A stretch of DNA of 63,950 bases, filler included, from Reclinomonas americana ATCC 50394 (GCA_048213135.1; 9 parts of 6 records of this genome joined end to end with filler, not necessarily neighbours in it), one strand, 5' to 3'. Shown: positions 29,537 to 60,949, counted from the first letter of the whole stretch. A program made the numbers and translations. The notes: a model not told the origin generated them from the sequence alone.

Positions 29537-31779
29537 ATGCAAAGAGACGACGACGATGTCTCCTCGTCGAGTGACGCCGTCAACTCGCAAGCTGTAATGG
29601 TGCAAGCGCGCGCAGGCTCAGGTACACACACACACTCTCTCTCTCACTCACACACTCTCTCTCTCTCTCTCACTCACACTCACTCAGGGTTCGAGAACGA
29701 TGAGGCGCCTTCTGATCGACGTGAGCGATTCGGATGGTACTTGTACGACTTTGGATCGGCCGTGTTTGTGACCTCAGTCATCACTGCGTTCCTTCCACCG
29801 TTGCGTAACAGACACACAGAGAGAGAGAGACAGAGAAAAATCGGAGAAATTACGCAACAACTCACTCTGTCTGTGTGTTGCATGCTCGTGCAGCTATCTA
29901 ACGCACGTGGCCGACAAGTGTGGTGATGGCAAATACGTGTATCTTGGCTCATTGCCGATCGCCAACGATTCGCTCTTTACCTACGCAGTGTCAGTGTCGG
30001 TGTTCTTTCAAGTTTCGCGCGCACAGTGGTTGTTTTGTCTTCCCCTCTGACCGCCGTGCTCACTGCTCGCTGGCAGGTGATTGTGTTCATTCTCACTGGT
30101 GCACTGGCCGATTACGGGCGATTGCGCAAGACGCTGCTGGTGTTCTTTACGTTTATGTGCGCGGGAACGACCATGTCGATGATCTTTATCGATCCATCGC
30201 TGTGCACGTGGTGGCTTGGCGCGTTGCAGATCATTGTCGGCAACGTGTGCTACGGCACTGCGATCATCTTTTACAAGTTGCGTTGGTGGCCGCTGCTGCA
30301 CTGCTGGCTCCGCACACTCACTGTTGTTGTCGTTGTAGTGCGTATCTCCCGCTCATGTCGCGCAACCACGAGGATGTGCTGAAGATCACTGGGGGCGATG
30401 GCGACGAGGGCATTAGCAATGCGCGATTGATGGCGACCACCGACTCGCTGTCGGTGGCGGAGCGCATCGAGAAGGCGCGGACGGGCGCGGAGAACACGAT
30501 TTCGTCGCTCGGCTATCTCACTGGCTACCTGGGCGGCCTGGTAATGGTCATTATCGACGTGGGTATTCTGTTCCTGTTCAAGACGTTCTCGGAGAGCCTC
30601 GGTTACCAGGTCATTCTGGCGGCGGCTGGTGGATGGATCTTGCTGTTTGCGTTGATCGCCTTCCCCATGTTGAAGTCTCGACCGGGCCCTCCGCTGCCAC
30701 CGGGCTCCAGCTACATCTCGTTTGGGCTGAAGCGCGCCGGCAAGACAATCGGCAAGGCCAAGCACTTGAAGGTATGTGGTGCATGCTGCGCAAGGGGGAA
30801 GAGAGGGAGAGAGAGGATTTGTGCTCACACTTTTCTGCGCCCGCAGCACACATTCCTCTTCCTGCTGTCGTACTTGTTGCGTGGCGCGCCTCCCAAGTTG
30901 CTCCTCTTCTTTTGCTCACACACTGTGTTCTTGCGCGTGACGCAGCATTTACTCGGACGGCTATCAGGTATGTTTTCGCTTCCTCGAACACGCTTGACTT
31001 CTCTTCTCACTCTGTTGCTTCCCTCGCAGACGGTATTCATATCGCGCTCCACATAACGTGTGCCTCTCTCTCCCTGACTCCTTTCTCCACCACCACAGAT
31101 CTCGTACTGCGCCACCATTTTCGCGTCAGAAGTACTGCACTTCACCGCCCTTGAGATTGCCTACCTCATCGTGGAGGTGCAAGTGGTCGCCCTGCTCGGC
31201 TGTTACCTCTGGCTGTGGTTGAACCGACGTGGCATGCGTGCAAAGACCATCGTGCTCACCAACTTGGTTTGTGTTGACCTGCTCGTCTGTTTTACTGCAC
31301 TCCTTGGCTTGTATTAACTACTTTCCCCCGCGCAGGTGATCATGCTGGCGCTTCCATGCTACGGCTACGCCTTCCTCACCTCCAAAGCCGAGCTATACAT
31401 TCTCGCCGTGGTCTACGCCGCCAACCTCGGCTCCGTGCAGAGCTTCTCGCGCTCCATCTTCTCCGAGATGTTGCCGCGCGGCTACGAGGCCGAGTTCTTC
31501 TCTTTTTACGCCATCACCGACCGCGGTACGAGCTGGATGGGCCCGCTGGTCTTTGGCCTTGTCAACCAGTCCACCGGCTCACCTCGTGTGGCCTTCTTCT
31601 CGATCGCGGCCTTTTTCGTGGTCGGCGGCCCCATTCTGCTCTTTGTCGACGTTCGAAAGGGCAAGCACGACGCGGAAAAGTTCGCCGAGTCGACGCCGGC
31701 CTCGGGAGAAACCTCTGTGCCTGTGCCCATGACGGAAGTGCGTTCGACGGGCACCTCAGAGGAGGAAGAGGATGTTTGA
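29537..31779 (+). CDS. Atg22/UMF1-family MFS transporter, paralogue 2
   Basis: RERFGWYLYDFG, GALADYGRLRK, FYNAYLP, RPGPPLP, YSDGYQT, GSVQSFSRSIFSEMLPRGYEAEFFSFYAITDRGTSWMGP; shares intron positions with paralogue 1. Confidence 0.92.
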
Positions 31780-32101
31780 GTGCATGAAAAAAAGGGGTGC
31801 GAACGTCGCGAAAGTGTGTCATGCAAACCCCATTTTCCGCGCAAGTGTGTGTGAGAGAGAGAGGAGAGTGTAAGAATGCAGGTGTGTATGTGCACGTGTG
31901 TGTGTCTGTGAGTGTGTGCGAGTGAGTGAGAAGCAACAGAACAGAGAGCATTCACTTTACTCGTGCACTTTCTCTCTTTCTCACACACACGCACATACGC
32001 GCATACTCACATGCACACAGACTGTGCTCTGATGTCGTGACACTCTCGTCCACTCACACTCTCGACTCTGCATGTTCGCATCTTTGCATCATCATTTTTT
32101 C

Positions 32102-58889: not shown

Positions 58890-58966
58890 GGCGACGCTCT
58901 CCCTCGCACGCTGACACAGCCACAAGACGCACACAAGCGAGCCACTGTCTCTGTCTCTGTCACACA
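58890..58966. promoter_or_regulatory. Probable bidirectional promoter between EFG1 and PRO2
   Basis: Only 77 bp between the divergent inferred ATGs. Confidence 0.45.
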
Positions 58967-60949
58967 ATGTCTGGCGCGCAGGCTGCTGCTCAGGCGGCAC
59001 GTCGTGCGTTTCTGCAGTTGTGCGGGTCTACAGCTGCACAACGCGATCAGGTGCACGCGTTCACCCTTTCCCGTTCGTCTTCACTCGGTCTCTCTCTCAC
59101 TGTTTTGTAAGCAGGCATTGCGCGAGGTGGCGCGCTTGTTGGCCAGCGACACTGAAGATCGAGTGGCAGTGGAGCGCGCCAATGCAGAGGATATGCGGGT
59201 TGGGCAGGTCGAGGTCGATGCAGGTTGGGAGACTGTTGATTGATTGCAAGGATGATGATGATTCGTTGCTGATGGATCGATCGTTAAAGGGCGTCTTGCG
59301 GCCTCGTCGTACAAACGGTTGGACTTGTCGAGCAAGTGGGATACAGTGTTGGCCGGGCTTGAGCAGGTGGCATCGCTGCCGGACCCAGTTTCGTTGCTCT
59401 TTTGTTGCAGCAGCAGCACTTTGCGTGTGTGCCGACTTGTCTGCGCAGTTGATTCGCGTGTCGATGGCTCGTGAGTTGGCGCCTGGTCTTGACCTGTATC
59501 GCGTGGCGTGCCCGATTGGTGTGGTGTGTGTCATCTTTGAGGCGCGGCCGGATGCTGCCGTGCAGATTGCGTCGTTGTGCTTGAAGACGTCGAATGCGGT
59601 GATCTTGAAAGGGTGTGCTGGCGCGCGTCGCTCTCTTTTTGTTTCTCTGTCGATGGTCTCACTGACAGTCGCGCCAGGGGCAAGGAGGCTGTGCGCACCA
59701 ACACTGCACTGGTGGAGACCATCCGCCGGGCACTGGCCATCGTCGGACTGCCACAAGACGCTGTGCAACTGGTGTCCACTCGCGAGGTGCGTGCATCTGG
59801 GGGGGAAGTGGTTGTTGGCGCACATTGTTGTTTAAGGCGCTGTGCGCTGCAGGATGTCAACGAACTGCTCAAGATGAACCAGTACGTCGACTTGATCGTG
59901 CCGCGTGGTTCCAACGCTCTCGTGCGATTCTGCCAGGAGAACAGCACCATTCCGGTGCTCGGTCATGCCGACGGCATCTGCAGTGGTGTGTGTGTGCCTG
60001 TTGCTGCGCGTGCGCATGCATGCATGCACTCTTCTCATCGAGTGATCATGCACAGTGTATGTGGATGCATCGGCCGACGTGGAAAAGGCCGCAGCGATCG
60101 CCGCCGACTCCAAGGCGCAGAATGTGTCCGTTTGCAATGCGATGGAGACCCTGCTGCTGCACCGAGACACTCTCGCGCGCGTGTGGCCGGCGGTGGCACA
60201 GGCACTCGTCGCCAAGGTCACATTTTCGTCTCGCACCACCAGTGGCATACTCCCCTCACGCCTCTCTCTCTCTGTCTCTCTCTCCCCTCGCTGCAGAAGG
60301 TGCGCATGAAGATCGATGAGCGCGCACGCGAAGCGCTGCTGGAGGCCGGACTGGAGGATCTGGTGGGCTCGCACACGGAGCCAGTCGTGGCAGCCGACTA
60401 CAGCACCGAATTCCTCGACTACGTGTGTGCCGTCCGCACAGTGGACTCACTGGAGGAGGCCGAGGAGCACATCAACACACACGGGTCGAAGCACACCGAT
60501 GTGATTGTCACCGAGGACGCCGGAAATGGTGCGTAATGCGCGACTCGCTTCCGCTGAATCTCCCTCCCTCACACGCATGCACGTGCGGTGGTCAGCGGAG
60601 CACTTTTTCCGCATGGTCGACAGCGCAGGCACGTACTGGAATGCCTCCAGCCGTTTCGCCGACGGTTTCCGCTACGGTTTCGGTGCCGAGGCGAGTACGA
60701 ATCGCCTCCACCACCACCACCACACCCACTCTACTCTTTCTCACCCTCGTTCCACAGGTCGGCGTATCGACCAACAAGACACACGCGCGCGGTCCGGTCG
60801 GCGTCGAAGGTCTGGTCACCTACAAGTACCGCCTGTACGGACACGGTCAGGTGGTGACCGACTTTGTCGACGGGCACCAGTCGTTCACACATCGCGAGCT
60901 GGATGACACTGATCTTGCTGCATTGGCCGCCGATCGAGGAGACAAATGA
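58967..60949 (+). CDS. PRO2: Gamma-glutamyl phosphate reductase (stand-alone ProA/Pro2)
   Basis: [87 protein letters not shown]. Confidence 0.95.

Follow-up and report, generated by a model that had tools for sequence, protein, structure and literature searches.

In the 63,950-nucleotide (nt) stretch of Reclinomonas americana ATCC 50394 DNA analysed here (the window), about a quarter of the introns, all of the ordinary U2-type GT-AG kind, carry a second common form of 5′ splice site, N^GTT(G/T)CG(T), where ^ marks the exon-intron boundary; this form is found almost exclusively after exons ending in a base other than G. A preliminary description had counted about 19 such donors among some 80 introns between positions 29800 and 59393. 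That estimate was right in size (26 of the 98 introns in this range, for all genes on both strands), and our analysis confirmed the existence of a second, common donor class, dependent on the base at exon position -1 and extending beyond that range. The evidence comes from the sequence of a single 64-kb contig chain, in which 106 of 145 junctions rest on gene-finder models.

A second common class of 5′ splice sites

The final set comprised 145 introns, all of the GT-AG type, 36 of which (25%) had GTTNNG donors, all 36 being GT-AG: 24 GTTGCG, five GTTTCG, two GTTGAG, one GTTACG and four others. The exon ended in G at 90 introns and in another base at 55. GTTNNG accounted for 33 of the 55 non-G donors and for three of the 90 G donors (Fisher P = 1e-14, odds ratio 43.5), and the link to a non-G base at -1 proposed earlier was thus upheld. 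Over both strands of the window, GTTNNG was found at 363 of 8334 GT dinucleotides (4.4%) and GTTGCG at 96 of 8334; among donors, GTTGCG alone had a share of 17%. The five contig pieces with at least 12 introns all contained members of the class (9/31, 4/15, 5/21, 13/62 and 5/12), which occurred on both strands and also outside the 29800-59393 range. Retention of the intron would break the frame or add a stop codon in 30 of the 36 cases.

Identification of introns and junctions

Introns were called with a Viterbi gene finder combining a frame-specific Markov coding score, an acceptor matrix and a length prior, with the strand anchored by Pfam matches. AG was required at the acceptor, and the donor was defined as GT alone (GC being admitted during refinement), so that no donor class could be favoured. 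If anything, this blind finder was biased against the class, because it could take GTT-GCG for well-scoring Val-Ala codons; it read through GTTGCG at positions 29800, 54954 and 55170, where homology put the donors back. On its own, it yielded 134 introns, 120 of which were no longer than 130 nt, and GTTNNG was present in 28 of 55 non-G donors and three of 65 G donors among these 120 (P = 7e-9).

Local hidden Markov models (HMMs) were built from homologues of GH3, CAP-D2 and ATG22, and all alternative GT or GC donors and AG acceptors near the junctions were re-scored. The two ATG22 paralogues were curated by eye, one against the other, and the curated model of ATG22-like gene b scored 536.4 bits, versus 477.9 for the automatic model. 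Refinement on the homology score alone overfitted poorly conserved stretches (GC donors, 248-nt introns, gains of less than 3.5 bits), and a combined score was therefore used instead. Five genes were corrected by homology, and the final set brings together curated, refined and blind models. Among the 47 junctions scored with HMMs, 33 had a margin of 4 bits or more over every alternative donor within 45 nt, and a further one had no alternative; in the Cys/Met PLP enzyme gene, five of seven junctions were fixed by unbroken Pfam coordinates, bringing the homology-fixed total to 39 of 54 junctions examined. In this subset of 39, GTTNNG was found at none of 30 donors after G and at eight of nine after another base (Fisher P = 1.5e-7), the ninth non-G donor being GTGCGT.

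The ten donors cited in the preliminary description are real: all are GTTGCG, GTTTCG or GTTGAG preceded by a non-G exon base, and all belong to the final set. Seven are homology-fixed, by 4.9-10.5 bits over the alternatives (29800, 30012, 30277, 30876 and 54954) or by Pfam coordinates (49654 and 51026); the introns at 35943, 36413 and 59388 were retained on the basis of coding potential and an open frame. The 36 introns are listed below, with the bases on either side of the donor boundary.

29800..29893, plus strand: class intron ccacc^GTTGCGTAAC, ATG22-like gene b; HMM margin 6.8 bits over the best alternative donor
30012..30076, plus strand: class intron ttcaa^GTTTCGCGCG, ATG22-like gene b; HMM margin 9.0 bits
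30277..30338, plus strand: class intron tacaa^GTTGCGTTGG, ATG22-like gene b; HMM margin 10.5 bits; Pfam ATG22 85-148 then 150-285
30876..30945, plus strand: class intron tactt^GTTGCGTGGC, ATG22-like gene b; HMM margin 7.6 bits
34257..34329, plus strand: GTTNNG intron agtca^GTTTGGCTGG, PNP-like gene 1; donor-agnostic model only
34908..34967, plus strand: class intron gccga^GTTGCGCCCC; donor-agnostic model only
35475..35542, plus strand: class intron tcaac^GTTACGTACA, PNP-like gene 2; donor-agnostic model
35943..36016, plus strand: class intron tgcga^GTTGCGTTGC, PNP-like gene 2; by-eye reading, merged model open with no internal stop
36413..36486, plus strand: class intron ctcac^GTTGCGTTTT, PNP-like gene 2; donor-agnostic model
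40623..40697, plus strand: class intron gtttt^GTTGCGTGCG, condensin CAP-D2 gene; combined score best by 9.2, HMM margin 2.2
41315..41374, plus strand: class intron aggcc^GTTGCGTCTG, CAP-D2 gene; combined score best by 6.6, HMM margin 0.9
42959..43028, plus strand: class intron cgaca^GTTGCGCACA, CAP-D2 gene; combined score best by 4.1, HMM margin -3.2
49654..49719, plus strand: class intron ccaat^GTTGAGAGAG, Cys/Met PLP enzyme gene; Pfam 7-59 then 61-139 over the junction
51026..51096, plus strand: class intron catcc^GTTGCGTCTT, Cys/Met PLP enzyme gene; Pfam 273-336, split codon, 338-381
52148..52211, plus strand: class intron ggcat^GTTGCGTTCT, WD40 gene; donor-agnostic model
54954..55018, plus strand: class intron gaaaa^GTTGCGCAAG, GH3 gene; HMM margin 4.9 bits; the blind model had removed the SDW motif here, and the correction gained 45.6 bits
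55170..55236, plus strand: class intron gccga^GTTGCGCCCA, GH3 gene; HMM margin 5.5 bits
55809..55879, plus strand: class intron gcggc^GTTTCGTTGC, GH3 gene; coding and acceptor score only, HMM margin -0.4
59224..59289, plus strand: GTTNNG intron tgcag^GTTGGGAGAC, one of the three with G at -1; donor-agnostic model
59388..59448, plus strand: class intron accca^GTTTCGTTGC; donor-agnostic model
61833..61902, plus strand: class intron cgatc^GTTGCGTGGA; donor-agnostic model
3966..4026, minus strand: class intron cgcaa^GTTGCGTCCA, large gene of unknown family; donor-agnostic model
4797..4880, minus strand: class intron aaaac^GTTGCGAGCA; donor-agnostic model; in frame and stop-free when retained
5952..6014, minus strand: class intron ccgat^GTTGCGTGGC; donor-agnostic model
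6188..6344, minus strand: GTTGAG intron gttgc^GTTGAGTTGT, 157 nt; donor-agnostic model, less sure because its length is atypical
6729..6791, minus strand: GTTNNG intron tcagt^GTTTTGTGTC; donor-agnostic model; stop-free when retained
6937..7014, minus strand: class intron ccaca^GTTGCGTGGG; donor-agnostic model; stop-free when retained
7578..7638, minus strand: class intron gtaca^GTTGCGATCC, MORN-repeat gene; donor-agnostic model
8462..8536, minus strand: GTTGCG intron atcgg^GTTGCGTCTC, G at -1, MORN-repeat gene; donor-agnostic model
9930..10152, minus strand: GTTGGG intron gtgaa^GTTGGGCTTG, 223 nt; donor-agnostic model; long, doubtful
43294..43366, minus strand: class intron gtcaa^GTTGCGCAAC; donor-agnostic model
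44290..44352, minus strand: class intron ctatc^GTTTCGTACA; donor-agnostic model; stop-free when retained
44991..45055, minus strand: GTTGCG intron gactg^GTTGCGTACC, G at -1; donor-agnostic model
46594..46670, minus strand: class intron aaact^GTTGCGTCTC; donor-agnostic model
58477..58569, minus strand: class intron agctc^GTTGCGTTGC, Efg1-like gene; donor-agnostic model; in frame and stop-free when retained; Pfam Efg1 score higher without this intron (32.5 versus 26.3 bits)
58744..58823, minus strand: class intron agaaa^GTTTCGTGAG, Efg1-like gene; donor-agnostic model

It might be argued that no special recognition is involved, the class being a product of gene-model errors or of a loose consensus with compensation between exon and intron. 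It is known that G at -1 and the intron positions of a 5′ splice site can compensate for one another, and most of the introns were obtained with a gene finder. We nevertheless consider this explanation very improbable: the donor-blind finder was biased against the class, the homology-fixed subset displayed the cleanest split, and compensation alone predicts strong canonical motifs after non-G exon ends, where only five strong canonical +5G+6T donors were found, versus 33 with the shifted motif. Four observations do count against the class as delimited here. The remaining 17 of the 55 non-G donors match neither class; they are probably gene-model errors, because most have a conventional in-frame donor a few codons off. 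Six of the 36 class introns are in frame and stop-free when retained. Homology provided no confirmation at four of the ten class junctions in the three HMM-scored genes (40623, 41315, 42959 and 55809), which lie in poorly conserved stretches and had margins of 2.2 to -3.2 bits. Finally, GTTGCG was not depleted from exons (eight observed, 7.3 expected), but canonical motifs were likewise not avoided in exons, and the power of this test is therefore low.

A cross-gene check was performed, in which donor models were trained on other genes and judged by the homology score of the predicted GH3, CAP-D2 and ATG22 proteins. For GH3, the score rose from 818.4 bits with no donor model to 895.2 with a single position weight matrix and 910.0 with a model conditioned on the -1 base (+14.8 for conditioned versus single); the corresponding values were 746.9, 785.6 and 786.3 bits for CAP-D2 (+0.7), and 493.2, 493.2 and 525.5 bits for ATG22 (+32.3). 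The conditioned model was, therefore, best or equal in all three test genes and scored above no donor model in all three.

Composition of the class donor

The consensus of the class, A^GT-TGCGT, is that of the ordinary AG^G-TGCGT site in which T stands in place of the second G and the cut falls one base earlier. GTGCGT is the commonest strong canonical donor in the window (10 donors). The preliminary description had equated GTTGCG with GTGCG plus one extra T; class positions +4 to +7 repeat ordinary positions +3 to +6. In the class (n = 36), +4 was G in 28 cases, T in seven, A in one and never C, +5 was C in 30, +6 was G in all 36, and +7 was T in 24 and never G; only the G at +6 forms part of the class definition, to which +4, +5 and +7 do not belong. 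The other 109 introns had G at +3 in 63 cases, C at +4 in 46, G at +5 in 71 and T at +6 in 49. The log-likelihood of class positions +4 to +9 was -229.1 when they were read as ordinary +3 to +8, versus -364.5 in the normal register and -290.5 for background. The extra base is nearly always T: +3 was T in 24 of the 25 donors with GCG at +4 to +6, and GTGGCG and GTTGCG are equally frequent in the window (96 each). Donors after G were degenerate, as had been claimed, with 48 distinct hexamers among 90 and information of 0.11-0.21 bit at +3, +4 and +6, though G at +5 retained 0.66 bit.

The displacement is also seen at the last exon base. Position -1 of the class (A15, C11, T7, G3) has a profile like that of normal -2 (A57, C27, G11, T14 in the other introns) and unlike that of normal -1 (G in 87 of 109), and exon positions -3 to -1 had a log-likelihood of -147.9 in the shifted register, versus -191.0 in the canonical one. 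The 3′ signals were alike in the two groups: CTNAY was found within the last 45 nt in 32 of 36 class introns and 86 of 109 others, the median distance from the branch A to the 3′ splice site was 19 nt in both, C occupied acceptor position -3 in 30 of 36 and 99 of 109, and the pyrimidine fraction was 0.62 and 0.63, respectively. Median intron length was 70 nt in the class, versus 67 nt in the other introns.

These introns could also be read as GC-AG introns starting three bases later, with GTT as an exonic valine codon, since GCG lies in frame three bases into every GTTGCG and was the best alternative donor at five junctions. This reading is hardly credible. The extra residue costs 4.9-10.5 bits at all five of these junctions (29803, 30280, 30879, 54957 and 55173), there is no space for it in the Pfam coordinates on either side of 49654 and 51026, and GTT is mostly not a codon, given that class members are spread over all three phases (14/11/11).

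Other identities for these introns were rejected. U12-type introns, defined by an RTATCCTT donor and a TCCTTAAC-like branch site, also constitute a second donor class within the same genes, but RTATCCTT had no match on either strand of the window, the class donors are GTTGCG-like and their 3′ signals are those of the other introns. A repeated, introner-like family was not supported (an 11-mer of the intron body was common to three of 630 class pairs, versus 74 of 5886 other pairs). A TT...GN intron moved by one base at both ends is unparsimonious, as GT-AG fits all 36 introns, and an origin through one-base sliding of a G^GT donor would require an impossible shift of the acceptor.

Recognition of the class donor

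The donor statistics fit, indirectly, the displaced U1 register suggested in the preliminary description: the consensus is displaced, T is kept at +3 and G at -1 falls from 87 of 109 to three of 36. We propose, with a probability of roughly 0.55, that a single U1 small nuclear RNA (snRNA), and subsequently U6, reads the class donors with the helix one nucleotide out of register, every snRNA contact being deduced from the donor sequences. The same U1 5′ end would read both AG^GTGCGT and the class donors. In the latter, intron G+1 would lie opposite U1 C9, the normal place of exon G-1, U+2 would be mismatched with U1 C8, U+3 would pair with U1 A7, and the GCGU core (+4 to +7) would face U1 positions 6 to 3. 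The U1-bound motif would then be G-N-U-G-C-G-U, with N = G at the usual G^GU site and N = U at the class ^GUU site, and cleavage would occur at whichever GU is present. U6 would pair with the core G-U at +6/+7 rather than at +5/+6; the distance from this pairing to the cleaved bond would grow by one nucleotide, and one nucleotide would be looped out. If G+1 replaces G-1 opposite C9, then G at -1 is expected to drop, as seen; a pair with A7 needs T at +3, which a free bulge would not, and the 24 of 25 donors with T thus favour the A7 pair. The preference for the shifted over the strong canonical motif after non-G exon ends (33 versus 5) suggests that a G facing C9 matters most, and the similarity of branch-site and acceptor signals in the two groups points to the same spliceosome.

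Several findings sit poorly with a displaced register. Exon positions -3 and -2, taken by themselves, fail to distinguish the two registers, the normal one fitting slightly better (log-likelihood -95.7 versus -101.7). The class is sharper than, and not identical to, the ordinary consensus (class +4, A1 C0 G28 T7, versus ordinary +3, A19 C20 G63 T7, P = 0.0012; class +5 versus ordinary +4, P = 0.0002). In nearest-neighbour duplex calculations, the standard 11-nt U1 5′ end, from which the organism's own U1 may differ, gave only -1.4 kcal/mol with the class consensus, versus -7.8 with the ordinary consensus and -2.5 with a non-G canonical site. The conserved C at +5 (30 of 36) cannot pair with a uridine-type base and has no partner in the standard U1, and C or T at -1 (18 of 36) cannot pair with U1 U10.

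The extra nucleotide might alternatively be accommodated by a bulge, with normal pairing of G+1 and U+2, one of the uridines at +2/+3 bulged and the GCGU core one step further on. Such a helix has as many base pairs as the shifted one, either of two adjacent uridines may bulge, a looped-out nucleotide is needed anyway at the U6 stage, and the bulge +2/+3 register has been validated in human cells, for which 68 predicted and 54 curated sites are tabulated (PMC4856993). In this arrangement, however, pairing of G-1 with C9 would contribute an extra base pair and G should be preferred at -1; three of 36 class donors have it, versus 87 of 109 others, and this near absence counts against a bulge. 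Moreover, a bulged base need not be T, yet +3 almost always is. We therefore regard the bulge as unlikely.

As another alternative, in line with the altered snRNAs or accessory factors proposed in the preliminary description, the class could be read directly by an altered or additional U1 snRNA whose 5′ end complements GUUGCGU or GUGCGU, or through an added factor. The weak helix predicted for the standard 5′ end would be accounted for in this way, as would the strong conservation of C at +5 and G at +4 (28 of 36) despite poor pairing with the uridine-type U1 positions 5 and 6. For the similar atypical GTGCGTG consensus of Ostreococcus, snRNA changes were raised as worth exploring, though a single spliceosome was judged more likely (PMC2483917). 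An Rfam gathering scan of the window, the only sequence searched, yielded no match at all, and thus no snRNA gene. One U1 suffices to explain why the class motif is a one-base displacement of the ordinary motif, a relation that would be coincidental with two U1s. A preference for G at -1 would persist with any variant that keeps C at position 9, and the two classes have identical 3′ signals. A changed or second U1, or an added factor, thus appears quite improbable. The weak helix is at most a hint, in that it permits a changed U1 or a helper but shows neither.

The class is solid as an observation, and the displaced register moderate as a mechanism. Tentatively, and with rather less confidence than in the register itself, we suggest that the spliceosome of this lineage may routinely accept two spacings between the GU and the core, with about a quarter of introns off the universal U1/U6 register and a G opposite C9 as the real requirement, and that this may have been enabled by an altered U1 5′ end (at positions 5 and 6) or by changes in U1C or in Prp8-side proofreading. 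If true genome-wide, a 5′ splice site register that is rare in mammals would be a main splicing mode in a protist. It would provide a natural system for studying how the cleavage site is set independently of the position of U1 binding, and would reveal how much slack U6 tolerates between the catalytic GU and its paired G. There are also consequences for gene prediction: a single-matrix donor model misplaces class junctions, and the donor-blind finder missed three of them and deleted the catalytic motif of GH3.

Comparison with known systems

Shifted-register sites of mammals were reportedly described by Roca and Krainer (2009, Nat Struct Mol Biol) and are reported to number a few dozen in humans. 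In a later study, both the shifted and the bulge +2/+3 registers are described as proven in human cells, and the shifted one moves all U1 pairs by one, so that G+1 faces C9 (PMC4856993). The class shares with mammalian shifted-register sites a U at +3, the helix moved by one with G+1 facing C9, and a cut at GU, all of which would apply here on the evidence of the donor sequences. It differs in frequency, with 36 of 145 introns as against a handful of atypical human sites, in its core (GCGU here, AAGU there) and in its tie to a non-G exon end. The human bulge +2/+3 register (Roca et al. 2012; Tan et al. 2016, PMC4856993) likewise has an extra nucleotide between the GU and the paired core, but gains from G at -1, whereas -1 is G in three of 36 donors here and the extra base is nearly always T.

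According to a further study, U1 only roughly places the site, U5 and U6 fix cleavage, and cleavage normally occurs five nucleotides upstream of the U6-paired G; the same study gives first evidence, in humans, for one displaced U6 register (PMC11162779). In its tandem donor of STAT3 exon 21, as in our proposal, the spacing between the cleaved bond and the G paired with U6 C42 is not the usual five. The STAT3 register is one nucleotide closer and concerns a single human site, whereas that proposed here would be one nucleotide further and concern a quarter of introns. The GTGCGTG donors of Ostreococcus lucimarinus outside chromosome 2 (Irimia and Roy 2008, PMC2483917) have the same G/C-rich GTGCGT core, but that genome is intron-poor, with one strict consensus and no displaced class reported in the part of the paper available, whereas the window is intron-rich and its donors after G are degenerate. 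Searches of the open-access literature brought up no description of GTTGCG-type donors as a class, nor of any lineage in which a displaced register is common; the work they retrieved on shifted and bulge registers concerned humans and tunicates.

Gene content and further features of the window

The window consists of intron-rich eukaryotic DNA with a G+C content of about 57%, in which introns, mostly 55-110 nt long, each contain a branch-like CTNAY motif and end in a CAG acceptor. Eight identical 100-base joins were found in it, each consisting of 44 N, TTAATTAATTAA (with stops in all six frames) and 44 N, besides further N gaps.

16490-16589, 21618-21717, 24717-24816, 26450-26549, 32490-32589, 38691-38790, 57592-57691, 62789-62888: artificial contig linkers

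The window thus consists of contigs strung together, which need not be neighbours or follow this order in the genome, and the joins truncate genes (e.g. CAP-D2 at 38791). Pfam matches in long open frames on the plus strand between 27 and 57 kb identified two ATG22-like transporters, PNP-like genes, condensin CAP-D2, a Cys/Met PLP enzyme, a WD40 protein and a GH3 glucosidase. The closest relatives of CAP-D2 were animal and chytrid proteins (identity ≤49%), and those of GH3 were unnamed or protist proteins (identity ≤61%), which suggests an organism with no close annotated relative in the collections searched.

Several tandem PNP-like pieces lie at 32748-36645 (plus strand), where the gene models are rough, and a stretch first assigned to the upstream gene matches PNP-like gene 1 locally; the region may hold three PNP-like genes. 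A homologue search with a PNP-like gene gave one weak match and the alignment of two PNP-like models was uninformative, so the PNP junctions rest on coding models. At 53153-53653, there is a weak MFS_2 match in a minus-strand frame (E = 4.8e-5), and the exon modelled on the plus strand has no Pfam match. A sub-threshold match to the spliceosome-associated Cwf15/Cwc15 family was detected at 902-1579 on the minus strand (E = 3.5e-4, 20.9 bits versus a cut-off of 30.4).

The tandem ATG22-like paralogues both carry a 3-nt microexon, ACG (Thr), at 27843-27845 and 31030-31032 (plus strand); the flanking introns are well formed (62-85 nt), and omission of the microexon costs 10.4 and 10.9 bits against the family HMM. 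They also share a 17-residue stretch, EVFKFLLAYLIFSDGYS and HTFLFLLSYFIYSDGYQ, at 27637-27757 and 30847-30967 (plus strand), which is split by an intron after 22 nt in one paralogue and after 29 nt in the other, at positions 7 nt apart; the intron after 29 nt is a GTTGCG intron. ATG22-like gene a contains an unusually long intron of 661 nt (28360-29020, plus strand), which is full of (CT)n microsatellites and has a donor with a homology margin of 10.1 bits. Lastly, a single unbroken exon of 345 residues with seven WD40 repeats (Pfam E = 3.8e-82) is present at 19114-20151 on the minus strand, among genes with one intron per 100-300 nt; this uninterrupted gene may be a retro-copy or a recent acquisition.

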